Source: a virus. Taken from it: DNA of 64,000 nt. The position numbers and the translations under genes were made by a program. The stretch covers positions 32,001 to 96,000 of IMG/VR virus record IMGVR_UViG_3300021364_003460. One strand, given 5' to 3'. Within the stretch, counting starts at the first letter, position 1, and each line of letters starts with the position of its first letter. This document shows positions 8,142 to 28,531 of the stretch, piece by piece. Under the pieces are notes generated by a model, which saw only the letters and a program-made list of their open reading frames with translations, had not been told where the DNA came from and made no database searches.

Positions 8142-8789
8142 ATGACTACAGAAGTAAGACTAAAGAAAACTTACAAGTCTGGCAGCAATGGGGATACTGG
8201 AATGAGTTATGTATTACATAACAGACCTCCTATTCTCAAATCTTCTCCTGCTTGTAAAGTTCAAGGTGAAATAGAAAAAGTAAGGCATAACATAGAAGAG
8301 TTACTGTATTCTTGTACTCTAATTCAAGAAGACTTAACTTATGTTCTTACTTGGTTAGATAGAAATCTATTTTCTCTAGCTAGTTTCTGTTATATGAAAG
8401 GAGAAAGTAGCAATCATGTATTACCTACAGAGTTGTTAGATTTCTTAGATAAGAAAACTGCTGAATTGAAAGTAGAAGTAGGTGATTGCCAAGACTTCTT
8501 AAATCAATCTCACATTAATCTGATTAAGTTAGATGGTATTAGAATTGAAGTTAGACAACTAGAGTCAGCTTATGTAGCTTGGTGGCATACTCAAGAAATG
8601 ATATCTTTCCTTATGGATAGAGATGACTTAATTACAGGAGTAAAACATCATGCAGCTATATTAAATAGATTGTCAGCTTACTTGTTTGAAGCTACTAGAA
8701 TGGAAGCTAAACTAATGAATACTAAAGATATTTATGTAGAGCAAAGACCTTGGCAAGCTAACTTAGAATCTTTTAATCCACCTTTATAA
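8142..8789 (+). CDS. pduO: PduO-type cob(I)alamin adenosyltransferase-like protein
   Basis: TYKSGSNGDTG (cf. YTxTGDxG), K.S...K..G.IE, RIEVRQLE (cf. RtvcRRaER), LNRLSAYLF (cf. LNRLSDxLF); directly upstream of nrdJ. Confidence 0.7.
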   Translation: MTTEVRLKKTYKSGSNGDTGMSYVLHNRPPILKSSPACKVQGEIEKVRHNIEELLYSCTLIQEDLTYVLTWLDRNLFSLASFCYMKGESSNHVLPTELLDFLDKKTAELKVEVGDCQDFLNQSHINLIKLDGIRIEVRQLESAYVAWWHTQEMISFLMDRDDLITGVKHHAAILNRLSAYLFEATRMEAKLMNTKDIYVEQRPWQANLESFNPPL

Positions 8790-15390: not shown

Positions 15391-16647
15391 ATGGCATTTT
15401 TAAGTATTGAAAGTAGCAATCCAAAGTTCAGTTACATTATTAATAAGAATCCTAGTAACCCTGCTATAGCTAAACCTATTAGGCAAGGTACTGCTATTGG
15501 GTGGTTTGCTAATGAACAGAAGTATTGTGTTAGGTTTGTAGACCCTCCTCAAAAGATGTCTTACAACAAAGCTGAGTATGAATACCTTGATGTGACAGCT
15601 TTGAGTTCACCAGCAGCTTACAGTAATCTTATTAGAGATTTCTTTAATGGATTGTTAAAAAAAGAAAGTGAGTTTGATGTAATTGAGCATGACTTTCATA
15701 AAATAGAATTAGGATTTATTAAATGTAGTAAAAGAAACCTTGAACACTTTACTAAGTTCTTTCCACAAGTTACCTATATAGAACTAGCTAAAAATACTTA
15801 TCAAGTAACCTTTTTTGATAAAAAATTAAGTTCTCTTAGAAAGCTACTTCATTTAACTAATCTATTCTGTATCTTCATGATGGTAGCTGATGATGACTTC
15901 TATGTTGACATTAATGAAGATGTTATCAAAAAGTATCTAGTTTCATTACAAGTTATAAAAGTTCCATACTATATAGCTAACCTATTCAAAATACAGTTTC
16001 TCAAAACTAAAGCTCTGTTTACTAAGTTTGCACCTACCTTACAAGAAGCCTGCACTGAAGAAGTTACCTTTGAGTTTGGTACTGTATTAGATGCTAGAAA
16101 GAGGTGGATTGAAAGTAACCTTTCTTTTAAGAACAATATAGTAGACATTGGTGCAGGAGAAGACTTTAACTACGCTTACCTGTCTAGAAACATTAAAGGC
16201 ATCTATTACCCAGTAGATAGAGATGAAGAAGCTAGAAAGTCTATTACTAGAAAGATTGAGTATAAGAAGTTTGATAAGGTAGCTGAACCTTTAGCTGACT
16301 GGAATGAAATTAAGGAACTATTAGATAGTGACACTGAAGTTATTTTAACTGAGATACTTGAACATAATAGTTTGAAGGAAGCTAGAGCTTTGTTAACAGA
16401 GGTCTTAAGTCATCCACAAGTTAAACGTTTACTTATAACCTTACCTTGGATGCCTTTCAACAAATACTATTTATTAGATACAGAGTTTAGGCATGATGAC
16501 CACAAATGGGAAGCTGATAATGAAGTATTAACTAAACTTTATTATGTTGTCAGATCAGAAAAGAAATATAAAGTTGCAGAAGCTTTTATAGGGGATTTAA
16601 TTTATGGAATATCTCCAACAGTAGGAATAATTATTGAGAAGGTGTAA
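15391..16647 (+). CDS. hen1: Hen1-like 3'-terminal RNA 2'-O-methyltransferase (N-terminal ligase-activating domain plus MTase domain)
   Basis: FSYIINKNP (cf. LGYLLHKHP), VDIGAGE, LTEILEH, FRHDDHKWE (cf. RHxDHxFEW); adjacent to pnkp. Confidence 0.85.
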   Translation: MAFLSIESSNPKFSYIINKNPSNPAIAKPIRQGTAIGWFANEQKYCVRFVDPPQKMSYNKAEYEYLDVTALSSPAAYSNLIRDFFNGLLKKESEFDVIEHDFHKIELGFIKCSKRNLEHFTKFFPQVTYIELAKNTYQVTFFDKKLSSLRKLLHLTNLFCIFMMVADDDFYVDINEDVIKKYLVSLQVIKVPYYIANLFKIQFLKTKALFTKFAPTLQEACTEEVTFEFGTVLDARKRWIESNLSFKNNIVDIGAGEDFNYAYLSRNIKGIYYPVDRDEEARKSITRKIEYKKFDKVAEPLADWNEIKELLDSDTEVILTEILEHNSLKEARALLTEVLSHPQVKRLLITLPWMPFNKYYLLDTEFRHDDHKWEADNEVLTKLYYVVRSEKKYKVAEAFIGDLIYGISPTVGIIIEKV

Positions 16648-16651
16648 TTAC

Positions 16652-19291
16652 ATGACAATTAATATTCAAATACCCATGCACACTGTAGTCACTATGGTGG
16701 CTCCTTCATGCTCAGGTAAATCTCTACTAGTAGAAACATTAGTAAATCAATTAGAAAGAACTTATCAATTAGGTTTAAGTAAACTCAACTTCCATGTAAT
16801 CTCTTCAGATGATATACGTAGAGAGCTTATTGGGGAAGACTTACATAAACATGACAATGAAATGCTTTATGCTTCTGGGGCTGCATTTGATTTACTATTT
16901 TGTAAGTTGAGAAACCTACTTCAGTTTCCTCTTAGTTTAAAGAATGCAGTAGTGTTTGTAGATACTACTGGTTTAAGTAAAGAGTTTAGAGACCAGGTAA
17001 ATAAAGTAGCTGAGAGATATGGTTATAATACAGCAGCCATTGTATTAGACTACAAAGAATATCAAGACTACTTTAAGTTAGCTGAAAATGATGAGAGAGT
17101 AGATAAGTCAGTTGTTAGCAATCATGTAAAAAGACTCAGAACTAAAACTCTACCTCAAATGAGGAGGAAAGACTACTCAGCAGGTATCTTTAAAATTAAA
17201 CAGCTAGATTACCTTTGGCACAACGTTGAAATTCAGTTAACTAATGCAAATGAATATATCAACTGTAGGCTACCTATTAAAACTGCTGAAGGGGAAAGGA
17301 TAGAGTATACTTGTTTAGGGGATAGTCATGGTTGTTATGATGAGGTAATACAAGTATTAACTAAAGCTGGGTTTACTATTGAAGAGGGGTTAATTAAAAA
17401 TCCTGGCAACAAAAGAATTGTTTGTTTAGATGACTACATTGATAAAGGAAGTAAGCAAAAAGAGCTTATTCAATTCTTCTATAACAACCAAGATTACATT
17501 TACCATGTTTTAGCTAATCATGAGGATTTTGTTGTAAGGTACTTTACTGGAGATATCAAACCAGATAAAGACTCTTTACAATACTTTGATTCTATTAGCT
17601 GGCTTAAAGATACTCCTGAGTTGGAAGAATTAAAATGGCTACATTCTCAAGCTAAACCCTTCTTAATTCACCCTGACTTTATCTGTACTCACTCTCCTTG
17701 TAAACTAAAACACTTAGGTAAACTAGATAAGGAATCTAAGAGAGCTCAACTTAAGCATAGACTACCTTCTATCTATGGTAAAGACTTTGATACTGAGGAA
17801 GAATACAAAAATGTACTAGAAACTAATTTAAATTGGTTAAAGGAGCAAGCTGTAGCTAACTTTCCTTTTATCTTCTCTGGTCATCTTTCATTCAGTAATG
17901 TTGTCAGACTAGGTAGCCAAGTAATGTTAGATACTGGAGCAGTCTATGGGAATAAACTTACCGCTTGTACTGTAAAAGGAAGAAAGCTAGACTTTACTCA
18001 AGTTCAAGCTAAAGAAGCATACTACCCTATTAAGTATCTAACAACTATCTTTGATACTAAAGATAAAGTTAACTTAAATAGTCTAGACTCTAGGGAACAG
18101 AGAAGAATTAAGAGAGCTTTAGGAGAGAAACCAATCAACTGGCTATCAGGAACTATGTCACCTAGTGCTAGTAATGATTCTCAGTTAGAACCTATTGAAA
18201 CAGCATTAGAATACTATAAATCTAAAGGTGTTACTGACCTAGTAATGCAATGTAAAGAAATGGGCAGTAATGCTTCCTTCTATTGGCTGCCTAATCCAGA
18301 AGACTGCTACATGGTTAGTAGAAATGGCTATCTTATTAATCAAGTAGACATTAAACCTATAGTAGATAAGTTCCACTCTCTAATTGCAGAAAGGTTTCCT
18401 GATGCTACTCAAGTAATAGTTTTTGGAGAATTGAAACCTTGGTCTGCTTTAGGTAAAGGTTTAATTGACCACCACTTCATCCCTATCTACTCAGGGATGA
18501 AAACTGAGTTAGAGTTCTCTAAAACTAATGGTTTTGATACAGCTTTCTCTAGTTTGTTATCTCAAGCTAAAGAAGAGTTTGCTCATGACAGAGGTAAGTT
18601 ATCTAAAGCTGAGTTAAGGGCTAAGTATGGAGATGCTAAAGTAGAGTGGTATAACAGTGTACTACAAGCTGCTAAGTATGTTAATCCTGTAGATATTGAT
18701 TTAGCTGAGGTAGAAGCCTACAAGGAAGAGTTAGATGGGTATACTCAAGATAGTGAGTTAGATTTCCAACCTTTCCAAGTATTAAAGATTGAAAGAGGTG
18801 ATAAAGTAGAAGTGTTACCTTTTGATAACTATGAAGGGTTTAAACTATTTAACTCTAATCAAATTATAAAATTAGATTTAAATTCTAAGGAAGGTTATGA
18901 TACTGAAGTTTTGTATGCTAGATATGTGTACAAAAACTGGGTATCTGCTCCACAAGACTTCTTTGGTTATACTAAGTTAGAAGGTGTAGTTATTAAACCT
19001 TTAGACCCTAAGCTGACTAATGTAGCTCCTTATATTAAAGTAAGAAATCCTCAGTACCTTAAGTTAGTGTATGGGCCAACTTACAATTTAGAACCTACCT
19101 ATAGTAAACTAGTTAAATCTAAAAGGATTAGTAGAAAGATTAAGTCTTCCATTAATGAATGGCAGCTAGGTTTAGAAATGTTAGGTATTCATTCTAGTCA
19201 GATGACATTAGATAACTCTAAAGCAGTAGACTTAATGATTAAGTTTATTGCAGAAGAAAGGAAAGTGGAAGTGTTAGATCCAAGGTTGTAA
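16652..19291 (+). CDS. pnkp: polynucleotide kinase-phosphatase-ligase (bacterial Pnkp type)
   Basis: Kinase APSCSGKS/SSDDIR; metallophosphoesterase GDSHG, DYIDKG, ANHE, DTGAVYG; ligase CKEMGS, GELKPWS, EGVVIKP, KVRNPQYLKLVYGP, DPRL end. Confidence 0.95.
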   Translation: MTINIQIPMHTVVTMVAPSCSGKSLLVETLVNQLERTYQLGLSKLNFHVISSDDIRRELIGEDLHKHDNEMLYASGAAFDLLFCKLRNLLQFPLSLKNAVVFVDTTGLSKEFRDQVNKVAERYGYNTAAIVLDYKEYQDYFKLAENDERVDKSVVSNHVKRLRTKTLPQMRRKDYSAGIFKIKQLDYLWHNVEIQLTNANEYINCRLPIKTAEGERIEYTCLGDSHGCYDEVIQVLTKAGFTIEEGLIKNPGNKRIVCLDDYIDKGSKQKELIQFFYNNQDYIYHVLANHEDFVVRYFTGDIKPDKDSLQYFDSISWLKDTPELEELKWLHSQAKPFLIHPDFICTHSPCKLKHLGKLDKESKRAQLKHRLPSIYGKDFDTEEEYKNVLETNLNWLKEQAVANFPFIFSGHLSFSNVVRLGSQVMLDTGAVYGNKLTACTVKGRKLDFTQVQAKEAYYPIKYLTTIFDTKDKVNLNSLDSREQRRIKRALGEKPINWLSGTMSPSASNDSQLEPIETALEYYKSKGVTDLVMQCKEMGSNASFYWLPNPEDCYMVSRNGYLINQVDIKPIVDKFHSLIAERFPDATQVIVFGELKPWSALGKGLIDHHFIPIYSGMKTELEFSKTNGFDTAFSSLLSQAKEEFAHDRGKLSKAELRAKYGDAKVEWYNSVLQAAKYVNPVDIDLAEVEAYKEELDGYTQDSELDFQPFQVLKIERGDKVEVLPFDNYEGFKLFNSNQIIKLDLNSKEGYDTEVLYARYVYKNWVSAPQDFFGYTKLEGVVIKPLDPKLTNVAPYIKVRNPQYLKLVYGPTYNLEPTYSKLVKSKRISRKIKSSINEWQLGLEMLGIHSSQMTLDNSKAVDLMIKFIAEERKVEVLDPRL

Positions 19292-22104: not shown

Positions 22105-22272
22105 ATGACTTTTAAGAAAGGTGACAAAGTAAAGTTAACTAAAGACTTTCCTCCTAAGTATAAACAAGGTGAAGAAGTCAATGTAACAGAAGCTTATGAA
22201 GCGGTAGATTACTCTACTATGTATTATGAAGTTAACGCTGACATTACTGTAGAAGAAGAGGATATTGAATGA
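22105..22272 (+). CDS. small SH3-like protein (55 aa)
   Basis: Own translation MTFKKGDKVKLTKD...; ATGA overlap with nblA. Confidence 0.5.
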   Translation: MTFKKGDKVKLTKDFPPKYKQGEEVNVTEAYEAVDYSTMYYEVNADITVEEEDIE

Positions 22273-22499
22273 TGGATGAATTAGACAACTTATTAGACAA
22301 CTATAGTAAACCTGATTTAGAAATACCTTTAGAAAAAAGATTTGAAATAGCTAAATTTAATAATCTTATTGAAGGTGCTAGTAAAGAGCAAGCTATTGAG
22401 TTAGCTAAACAAGCTTGGAAATTGATGCTTATTAGAGAGCATACTATGAATGAACTACTCAAGTATGAATGGGGATTAACGGATACCAAAGCTGCATAA
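22269..22499 (+). CDS. nblA: phycobilisome degradation protein NblA
   Basis: LEKRFEI..F...I...S.EQA......W..M..RE....ELLKYEWGL aligns without gaps to recalled Anabaena NblA LEQQFSI..F..QV..MS.DQA......Y.QM..RE..YQELLKHQWGL. Confidence 0.9.
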   Translation: MMDELDNLLDNYSKPDLEIPLEKRFEIAKFNNLIEGASKEQAIELAKQAWKLMLIREHTMNELLKYEWGLTDTKAA

Positions 22500-27140: not shown

Positions 27141-27437
27141 GTGGTCAAGATGATTATGACTGGCATTAGAGAAAAACTCTACTCTGAAATCTTTGTTGAG
27201 TTACCTATATTAGCTAAAGAACAAAAGTGGGCTATAACTGCTGACCACTGTATAGGAAGAATAATTTATGACTCTGTAATGAGTTGTAAGTGGAGTAAGG
27301 TAGTTAAGTCACCTTTCTATAAGAATGCTGAGTTGAGTAAAGTTGAGGAAGCTCTATTAGTGTGCGATCGCCTAAAGGTGGAAGGTAAAATATTAGCTGA
27401 CAAGTTGAATGAAGAGAGTTTGAGATATAGAAAATGA
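27141..27437 (+). CDS. hypothetical protein
   Basis: DHC..RI..D....W......FYK...LN..SL.YR pattern; contains the HIP1 site. Confidence 0.55.
   Translation: MVKMIMTGIREKLYSEIFVELPILAKEQKWAITADHCIGRIIYDSVMSCKWSKVVKSPFYKNAELSKVEEALLVCDRLKVEGKILADKLNEESLRYRK
27364..27371. repeat. HIP1 octamer GCGATCGC
   Basis: Exact match read in the sequence. Confidence 0.8.
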
Positions 27438-28531
27438 TAGATATTTACAGCTTAAATGAGATACCTAAAAAGTTTAATAAACAAGGACTCTGTTATTTTG
27501 GTAAGCTGACTAAAGAAGAGTTGCCTTTAGATTGTGAGCTAGAGTATGTTCCAGGCTATACCAATATATACCTAAACTCATTTGAAGAAGACTTTGTGCA
27601 GTTTGAGTACATGGATGGATTTAGTCCTAACCTTAATAAGAAGCTACACTTAGGTCATCTTAGTAACTTTATCTTTGCTAAAACTTTTCAATCACTGGGA
27701 GTTAGTAAACAAACTATTGCTATCTATGGAGATACCTTAAAAGGAACTGACTACACCAATAAAAATCAGATAATGTTTGACTACAAAGTAGATAAAGAAT
27801 ACTTTGCTAGTCAGATGACACTTAGTGATGACAGTATATTAAGTAATGGTAAGGGTAAGTATGAAGGTGCTAAAGTCTGGCAAGATAATGTAATGATTAA
27901 GTCCAATGGAGGTACTACATACTTCTATCAAGATGTAGCTCTAAGACAGCATCTAAAGTTACCAACTCTATACTTAACTGGACAAGAACAAGTAAATCAC
28001 TTTGCTGAACTTAAAAAGTATGATGGCAATGTTACTCATATAGGATTAGGTTTAGTCAACCTTAATGGCAGCAAGATGAGTTCTAGAGAAGGTAATGTTG
28101 TCTTTATGGAAGAAGTTGTAAGTAAACTAAATGAAGGTTTTAATAACTTAAAGTTAACTTACAATGTGCTGGCTGGTAGTCTTATTAAAAGTAATCCCAC
28201 TACTAATAAGAATATAAACATGACTGACTTAATGGATGTAAAGAAATCATTAGGTCTGTATGTGAGCTATTCACTGGCTAGATTAGATAAGCTACCTATT
28301 GAGTTTGAAAAGGTAGAAATTAGCCCTTTAGTTAAGTATCTGTATGCTAAGTCTAAAATTAAGTTGAATCCTTCTATATTGTTCAATAAGTTAGTAGAGG
28401 TGTGTCAAGCTTTCAATGGAGACTATGAAAGTAAAAGTAGTCAGGAGAATGTTGAGTTGTATTCTCAATATAAGGTAGATGCGGAGTATATGTTTGATAA
28501 GTTAGGGTTGTATAAGGTTGAGAAGGTGTAG
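27434..28531 (+). CDS. argS: compact arginyl-tRNA synthetase-like protein
   Basis: PGYTNIYL, FSPNLNKKLHLGHL (HIGH), KSNGGTTYFYQDVA, YLTG.EQ..HF, KMSSREGNVV, GLYVSYSLARL. Confidence 0.8.
   Translation: MIDIYSLNEIPKKFNKQGLCYFGKLTKEELPLDCELEYVPGYTNIYLNSFEEDFVQFEYMDGFSPNLNKKLHLGHLSNFIFAKTFQSLGVSKQTIAIYGDTLKGTDYTNKNQIMFDYKVDKEYFASQMTLSDDSILSNGKGKYEGAKVWQDNVMIKSNGGTTYFYQDVALRQHLKLPTLYLTGQEQVNHFAELKKYDGNVTHIGLGLVNLNGSKMSSREGNVVFMEEVVSKLNEGFNNLKLTYNVLAGSLIKSNPTTNKNINMTDLMDVKKSLGLYVSYSLARLDKLPIEFEKVEISPLVKYLYAKSKIKLNPSILFNKLVEVCQAFNGDYESKSSQENVELYSQYKVDAEYMFDKLGLYKVEKV

Follow-up and report, generated by a model that had tools for sequence, protein, structure and literature searches.

The 64,000-nucleotide stretch of viral DNA analysed here (the window) corresponds to bases 32001-96000 of the 190,865-bp IMG/VR record IMGVR_UViG_3300021364_003460 and carries two adjacent genes, hen1 and pnkp, which form a real, intact and selected pair in a cyanophage genome and encode a predicted Hen1-Pnkp RNA repair system (Table 1). 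The hen1 frame opens at ATG 15391 and closes with TAA at 16645-16647; a 4-nt spacer (TTAC) separates it from pnkp, which runs on the same strand from ATG 16652 to a stop codon at 19289-19291. A Shine-Dalgarno-like GAAGGTG run lies immediately 5′ of the pnkp ATG, and the 4-nt gap suggests that pnkp is translationally coupled to hen1. The two genes adjoin as in one operon, and an equal arrangement is seen in relatives. A scan for promoters and terminators returned fewer promoter-like sites than in shuffled sequences and no terminator. Both chosen start codons are supported because homologues begin alike (M-A/S-x-L in Hen1 and M-x-I-x-I-P in Pnkp); public gene calls place the pnkp start eight codons further downstream, yielding a protein of 871 residues. 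An initial annotation, made from the sequence alone, had given the same coordinates and 4-nt gap and had assigned the domains of the pair; open reading frame (ORF) and domain searches confirm it on all three points.

Hen1 matches the Pfam family Hen1_N (PF22032) over residues 4-219 (171 bits, E 3e-50), and its full length, including the methyltransferase half, aligns to Capnocytophaga Hen1 (4xrp_C, E 9e-25), the sole sequence match in the Protein Data Bank (PDB). PHROGs contains no family for this Hen1. The AlphaFold2 model of the protein (predicted local distance difference test (pLDDT) 91, predicted template modelling score 0.85) shows strong similarity to full-length Capnocytophaga Hen1 (4xrp_F; template modelling (TM) score 0.85, E 1e-31). 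Its N-terminal half matches the Hen1-N chain of the Pnkp-C/Hen1-N heterodimer (4e6n_B), and its methyltransferase half resembles the isolated Hen1 domains of Anabaena (3jwh) and Clostridium (3jwg), with TMt values of 0.75-0.79. The columns of the S-adenosylmethionine (SAM) motif D252-x-G254-x-G256 with D276 and of the metal ligands E321, E324, H325 and H371 show little or no variation over 34 homologues.

Pnkp contains the Pfam domains AAA_33, Metallophos and PNKP_ligase, in this order, and was modelled with a pLDDT of 86.8. For both proteins, the scores of the domain matches exceed by far what chance would produce. The kinase domain model superimposes on Clostridium thermocellum Pnk (4gp6 and 4jt2) with TMt values of 0.83-0.85. 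The essential residues of the latter enzyme, Lys21, Ser22, Asp38 and Arg41 (PMC3902929), have as counterparts K23 and S24 of the P-loop and D53 and R56 of the S51-S52-D53-x-x-R56 motif, in which D53 is the general base acting with R56; none of these positions varies over 12 homologues. T106 and lid arginines near R161 complete the kinase motifs. The phosphatase domain aligns to 4j6o_A (E 4e-13), and its model matches 4j6o_B with a TMt of 0.73. Nine residues are essential in the Clostridium phosphatase, namely Asp187, His189, Asp233, Arg237, Asn263, His264, His323, His376 and Asp392 (PMC3675462), and eight of them are identical here (D224, H226, D261, N279-H280, H347, H411 and D427).

The ligase half shows the closest relationship to the Capnocytophaga RNA ligase Rnl. 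It aligns with residues 17-394 of the 394 residues of 4xru_B (E 2e-36), a stretch that takes in the C-terminal domain bound by Hen1, and the match to the Clostridium ligase is weaker and covers 70 residues only (E 4e-8). The same order is seen at the structural level, the model giving a TMt of 0.85 with Rnl 4xru_E (28% identity) versus 0.68 with Clostridium Pnkp-C (4e6n_A). Motif I reads K535-E-M-G-S, with K535 in an invariant column, and R557, E593-L-K-P-W597, E777-G-V-V-I-K782 and K796-V-R798 (motifs Ia to V) are likewise invariant over the 12 homologues. The kinase, phosphoesterase, ligase and methyltransferase motifs of a complete cassette, as first proposed for this locus, are thus all found; the single real caveat on 'complete' lies in the ninth phosphatase residue, where the equivalent of Arg237 is Lys265.

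Table 1. Positions of hen1, pnkp, their domains and the other genes discussed, given in window coordinates unless the record is named
Feature	Position	Strand	Evidence
hen1, 418 aa, RNA 3′-terminal ribose 2′-O-methyltransferase with N-terminal ligase-activating domain	15391..16647	+	
Hen1 N-terminal (ligase-activating) domain, ~aa 1-225	15391..16065	+	PF22032; fold like 4e6n_B, 4drf_B
Hen1 methyltransferase domain, ~aa 226-418	16066..16644	+	SAM and metal-site columns; 3jwh, 3jwg folds
pnkp, 879 aa, kinase, phosphoesterase and ligase in one polypeptide	16652..19291	+	
5′-OH polynucleotide kinase domain, ~aa 1-200	16652..17251	+	AAA_33; invariant columns; 4gp6, 4jt2 folds
2′,3′-phosphoesterase (binuclear metallophosphoesterase) domain, ~aa 215-465	17294..18046	+	Metallophos; 4j6o_A alignment
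ATP-dependent RNA ligase domain (Rnl/Pnkp-C type), ~aa 478-879	18083..19288	+	4xru_B alignment; invariant columns
nblA, 75 aa, phycobilisome degradation	22272-22499	+	34 bits
Cobalamin adenosyltransferase-like gene	8142-8789	+	
Ribonucleotide reductase, 1059 aa	8829-12008	+	
365-aa ORF	27434-28531	+	ArgRS catalytic-domain match 23.0 bits, cut-off 23.3
CysRS homologue, 366 aa	30741-31841	+	Pfam tRNA-synt_1e 373 bits; 8qhp_A E 1e-88
Second RNA ligase, 346 aa	from 63878, past the window end		6vt4_A E 1e-22; Pfam RNA_ligase and PHA02142 OB domain
Serine recombinase, 529 aa	118015-119604 (record)	-	Resolvase domain 63 bits

Two systems of this kind have been characterised in bacteria. In classic Pnkp-Hen1, known from about 250 species, Pnkp is fused and has a phosphatase of the calcineurin type, and the two genes share an operon; in the Pnkp1-Rnl-Hen1 system of Capnocytophaga, known from 10 species, a T4-like Pnkp1 has a phosphatase of another superfamily, the ligase is a protein of its own and hen1 is unlinked (PMC4411300). 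The pair in the window shares with the classic system its adjacent co-oriented genes, the succession of kinase, binuclear metallophosphoesterase and ligase in a single chain, and a Hen1 predicted to join a ligase-activating N-domain to a Mn/Mg-dependent 2′-O-methyltransferase; the best structural matches of its kinase and phosphatase are also the Clostridium thermocellum Pnkp domains. It departs from that system in its phage carrier, in the replacement of Arg237 by Lys and in its divergent sequence, Pnkp scoring 154 bits (E 5e-45) with NCBIfam TIGR04075 against an equivalog cut-off of 750, and Hen1 25 bits (E 4.5e-6) with TIGR04074 against one of 340. Hen1 and the ligase, on the other hand, have their closest solved relatives in the Capnocytophaga gingivalis heterohexamer (4XRP/4XRU). 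Unlike in that complex, where the ligase is a separate protein and Pnkp1 is T4-like, here the ligase is fused to kinase and phosphatase in one 879-residue frame, the phosphatase is calcineurin-like, the kinase is of the classic type and hen1 is adjacent; consistently, Pnkp has no match to the T4-like Pnkp1 (4xrp chain A) at E<=0.01. Since the architecture is classic but Hen1 and the ligase are much closer to the Capnocytophaga proteins, the pair belongs to a third, divergent clade.

This clade is a large one. Hen1 as query retrieved 619 clusters (at 50% identity) at E<=0.001, 255 of them at E<=1e-30, and at least 170 bacterial species carry the clade; the 80 listed are all Bacillota and mostly Paenibacillaceae. 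Paenibacillus, Brevibacillus and Cohnella, and also Gottfriedia and a Bacillus sp., have it in chromosomal operons at 31-35% identity. All ten bacterial loci inspected show hen1 followed by a fused pnkp, often with a spacing of 3-4 nt. A Paenibacillus pair also lies under the TIGR cut-offs (185 and 70 bits), and the Gottfriedia and Bacillus copies bear the NCBI name 'metallophosphoesterase'.

A Pnkp tree was built with FastTree from 67 proteins and rooted at the midpoint; it has many long branches, and its bacterial part was drawn from the best 80 of 170 hits, a fused pnkp having been retrieved from 78 of these 80 loci. The window Pnkp groups with eight metagenomic relatives in a single clade with full support. 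The Paenibacillaceae sequences cluster tightly in one clade nested among long-branched viral and unassigned sequences, and the window Pnkp, unlike their chromosomal operons, stands in a separate phage clade. The comparison of phylogenies put forward in the initial annotation as a check therefore separates the phage clade from the Paenibacillaceae but is silent on the direction of transfer; on this topology the phage copy is not a recent capture from that family. Recent capture from a classic cyanobacterial operon is rejected on account of the low TIGR scores and because the nearest named bacterial protein among those found shares about 35% identity with it.

The carrier is a phage and not a bacterial chromosome, the latter having been named at the outset as the finding that would overturn a phage reading. 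Outside the window, the record encodes a major head protein (phrog_30785, E 1e-101), portal, baseplate and RIIA proteins; inside it are a tail-collar gene and genes for ribonucleotide reductase (RNR), PhoH, a UvsX-like recombinase, helicases and a primase, together with nblA. The virion genes on the record rule out the chromosomal interpretation. The major head protein is 41% identical to that of the Microcystis phages Ma-LMM01 and MaMV-DC, of which the former is known to carry nblA as well. The nblA gene points to a cyanobacterial host, and the host of the phage is probably a cyanobacterium. GC content is uniform (30-35%) across the record, which has no host-like flank. No tRNA gene is present in the window or in the whole 190,865-bp record, a terminal repeat is also absent from the latter, and an Rfam search of the window gave no match. 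IMG/VR labels the record 'provirus'. A tyrosine integrase was not found in the record; a 529-residue serine recombinase is encoded downstream of the window (Table 1). Taken with the label, this recombinase makes temperance possible, yet the record is not bacterial chromosome.

Comparison with metagenomic relatives indicates that the pair is maintained in the phage lineage. Pnkp relatives were found at 52-80% identity, and the same Pnkp protein also occurs on a contig of 221,872 bp. Two contigs, of 140 kb and 265 kb, that carry a 79%-identity copy show the same order of RNR, collar (minus strand), hen1, pnkp, phoH and recA. With respect to the 79%-identity relative (L005), hen1 has a dN/dS of 0.22 and pnkp one of 0.16, both genes being under purifying selection. 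Their products share 77-80% amino-acid identity with those of L005, versus 65-66% for the neighbours phoH and tail collar. In a distant relative (L113; Hen1 44% and Pnkp 43% identical), the contig carries giant structural-type genes, and nblA lies just after hen1-pnkp. A third conserved gene of the cassette is ruled out: the 79%-identity relative has no conserved counterpart of the 63-residue ORF directly 3′ of pnkp, and a 136-residue ORF, although conserved there (50%), has neither a family nor IMG/VR relatives. As the gene directly downstream is not conserved, the cassette consists of two genes. Among 50,697 phage records, megablast returned no DNA match to the cassette.

The initial annotation described a bacterial-type system in a phage, which is not new. 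XacN1 was annotated with PNKP and Hen1 in 2018 (PMC5852040), and Hen1 relatives occur in five of the 50,697 cultured-phage records (XacN1, RYC, vB_VpaM_sm033, CM1 and RAS14). In these five phages, the match to Pnkp is limited to its ligase half (residues 470-879). The XacN1 protein printed as PNKP (AP018399.1, ORF197) is annotated 'metallophosphoesterase', although its 404 residues comprise the ligase only, and a separate 164-residue 'predicted kinase' is encoded upstream of Hen1 in the same cluster (ORF197-199). The Hen1 gene of RYC (AP014858.1), annotated 'polynucleotide kinase', is 717 residues long, some 300 more than Hen1 alone. No calcineurin-type phosphatase was seen at the Hen1 loci of the cultured phages, XacN1 and RYC included. 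The locus described here thus resembles the cultured-phage cassettes in that Hen1 adjoins an Rnl-type ligase on a phage genome, and differs from them in its complete fused Pnkp.

A single-protein scan of IMG/VR with Hen1 gave no match. Search patterns derived from an eight-sequence alignment identified at least 17 other viral contigs of 9-530 kb (16 of them at least 39 kb long) with a Hen1 at 28-33% identity. In most of the 17 a fused Pnkp lies directly 3′ of hen1, and in some it is split or separated from hen1 by inserts. Two contigs have a kinase ORF separate from the phosphatase-ligase, the two lying 0.25 kb (L024) or 1.4 kb (L020) apart, and two others (L017 and L023) have about 1.4-1.8 kb inserted between hen1 and pnkp. 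A comparative survey of conflict systems in jumbo phages published in 2021 covers RNA ligases, kinases and phosphatases and leaves Hen1 unmentioned (PMC7824862).

Intact active sites, modelled folds and purifying selection together make it very probable that the pair is an active Hen1-Pnkp repair system, with the activities and complex formation expected of one. The kinase domain would phosphorylate the 5′-OH of a broken RNA, the metallophosphoesterase domain would take off the 2′,3′-cyclic phosphate, Hen1 would place a methyl group on the 2′-OH of the 3′-terminal nucleotide and the ligase domain would seal the break; in characterised systems the ligase works only with the Hen1 N-terminal domain bound. 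The junction, now 2′-O-methylated, would resist a second cut by the same nuclease because the 2′-OH nucleophile is absent. This scheme of healing, methylation and sealing into a cleavage-resistant junction, which the earlier reading took from the bacterial complexes, is established biochemistry of the family (PMC4411300, PMC3675462), and the coupling of repair to immunity has been shown in vitro for those complexes (PMC4411300).

The most likely use of such a system would be to keep translation running after a host abortive-infection or CRISPR-associated RNase has cut tRNA or rRNA, in a phage that has no tRNA genes of its own as substitutes for the cut ones. T4 Pnk and Rnl1 reverse the damage done by PrrC, and many defence RNases leave 2′,3′-cyclic phosphate ends. 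Like T4 Pnk and Rnl1 acting on PrrC-cut tRNA-Lys, the pair would be a phage heal-and-seal system for 2′,3′-cyclic phosphate/5′-OH breaks, and T4 serves as the model for its role. The enzyme families are different, T4 using a HAD-type phosphatase and the Rnl1 ligase; T4 also has no methyltransferase, so that its repaired tRNA can be cut again. The analogy with T4, the end chemistry of the RNases and the absence of phage tRNA genes, taken together, slightly favour counter-defence as the main role, with host tRNAs or rRNA as the presumed substrates. For the statement as a whole, that this is a functional Hen1-Pnkp repair complex of a Ma-LMM01-like cyanophage acting mainly in counter-defence, we consider the case reasonably good.

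Several observations weigh against this interpretation. Both proteins fall far under the NCBI equivalog cut-offs (154 versus 750 and 25 versus 340 bits). The phosphate-binding Arg237 of Clostridium thermocellum Pnkp is replaced by Lys265, at a position that varies over 12 clade members (mostly K, but also R, G, T and S), and the R237K mutant of the Clostridium enzyme has lost its Mn-dependent phosphomonoesterase step, while the cyclic phosphodiesterase activity is kept and is even faster (PMC3675462). Full 3′-end healing is therefore not assured. In a close relative (P0015; Pnkp 52% identical) the phosphatase domain has decayed, with H226 changed to Asn, D261 to Asn and H280 to Gln and about 45 residues deleted, and the kinase and ligase motifs are intact; judged by these changes, P0015 would be a natural phosphatase-dead variant within the same phage clade, and this decay suggests that the system may do without the phosphatase or have another enzyme to stand in for it. 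The phage is, moreover, uncultured and without a known host nuclease, and even in bacteria the in vivo substrates of Hen1-Pnkp are unknown (PMC4411300).

The missing Arg237 equivalent in the phosphatase admits an altered chemistry, in which the domain opens the cyclic phosphate only, so that another phosphatase is needed, or in which the system works mainly through kinase and ligase, possibly feeding the second, Rnl5-type ligase of the genome. The variability of Lys265 in the clade, the documented R237K phenotype (PMC3675462), the decay seen in P0015 and the presence of that second ligase, of a type that seals 3′-OH/5′-PO4 nicks (PMC4408790), all agree with it. However, eight of the nine essential residues are kept, a Lys could still contact the phosphate, and Hen1 and the ligase need a free 2′,3′-diol end and have been selected together with the phosphatase domain, so that we regard an altered chemistry as improbable. 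The same low standing is given to the notion that the cassette is cargo of lysogenic conversion, carried by a temperate phage and protecting the lysogen rather than serving the lytic cycle. The 'provirus' label, the occurrence of the same Pnkp on the 221,872-bp contig and the 529-residue serine recombinase speak for it; yet a tyrosine integrase was not found, GC content is uniform, a host-like flank is absent, the nearest cultured relatives are lytic Microcystis phages, and the cassette sits in the main plus-strand block among RNR, PhoH, UvsX/RecA, helicase and primase, which are typical lytic early or middle genes.

The strongest competitor, though still unlikely, is general RNA maintenance during a long infection, which would preserve host and phage RNAs in the face of any ribotoxin, including bacteriocins, contact-dependent toxins, toxin-antitoxin RNases set free by host shut-off and competing phages, with no tuning to an anti-phage system. 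The bacterial complexes are broad in substrate and have been proposed to be generic repair systems (PMC4411300), and at least 170 bacterial species have members of the clade in their chromosomes, a setting in which an anti-defence role is impossible. Against this, a lytic-type phage would have little reason to keep a selected 3.9-kb cassette unless RNA cutting were regular in infection, and the sole phage RNA repair system of known role, T4 Pnk/Rnl1, answers an abortive-infection nuclease. Least probable is a function in processing the phage's own RNAs, by joining or by 3′-end methylation of transcripts or intron-derived RNAs. Introns, inteins and homing endonucleases abound in the genome, and eukaryotic HEN1 methylates the 3′ ends of small RNAs in their maturation; but searches of the window for RNA families and tRNA-like genes were negative, group I introns ligate themselves without the help of a ligase, and a complete set of heal-and-seal domains is what characterises break repair. 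Counter-defence by lasting repair thus remains the preferred reading of the pair.

The cassette had also been grouped with aminoacyl-tRNA synthetase (aaRS)-like genes and a second ligase of the window into a translation-rescue arsenal. One CysRS-like gene and the second ligase are real, but the second aaRS-like call is unsupported, and the genes lie 8-45 kb from the cassette. As they are neither adjacent to nor co-conserved with it, the link is thematic only. The CysRS homologue has a full catalytic domain and ends where the anticodon-binding domain of the 461-residue Escherichia coli enzyme would begin; its product may be either a truncated CysRS or a cysteine ligase resembling MshC. To describe the 365-residue ORF as aaRS-like is unjustified, its ArgRS match being below threshold (Table 1) and a PDB sequence relative being absent. 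The second ligase is of the Rnl5/NgrRnl type, which comprises the nick-sealing enzymes of Naegleria and Deinococcus, and two ORFs of 121 and 234 residues without a family follow 3′ of it. The RNR gene adjoins the cobalamin adenosyltransferase-like gene and is interrupted by an intein that bears a LAGLIDADG domain (about residues 426-733). Its product is possibly a B12-dependent class II enzyme, the RNR-II insertion-domain match lying below the Pfam cut-off (23.9 versus 27), and the 79%-identity relative has a two-subunit class I RNR in its place.

Phage Hen1-Pnkp is already known in kind, and the pair described here is a new member of it from a poorly annotated clade. That clade, present in at least 170 bacterial species and on many viral contigs, is named only 'metallophosphoesterase', 'predicted kinase' or 'hypothetical', which leaves a gap in annotation. 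In evolutionary terms, it bridges both characterised systems, with the architecture of the classic one and a Hen1 and ligase of the Capnocytophaga type. It is tempting, though we hold this to be rather doubtful, to view the fused clade as mainly a phage-borne counter-defence module with its deep diversity in large phages and the Paenibacillaceae operons as one compact offshoot, by which its phage carriers, here one devoid of tRNA genes, would permanently 'vaccinate' host tRNAs or rRNA against anticodon nucleases and HEPN-type RNases through 2′-O-methylation of the site of repair.

To our knowledge, a phage-encoded Hen1 has not been tested by anyone. If the proposed role is correct, the pair would represent viral counter-defence by RNA modification, so far undemonstrated for any virus, and phage Hen1-Pnkp would make repair permanent, in contrast to the tRNA that can be re-cut after T4 repairs PrrC damage. 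The main interest of the locus lies in this combination of repair and methylation as a possible lasting viral counter-defence, and in the replacement of Arg by Lys in the phosphatase. A phage, for which the selective pressure is easier to guess, could also reveal the in vivo role of Hen1-Pnkp.

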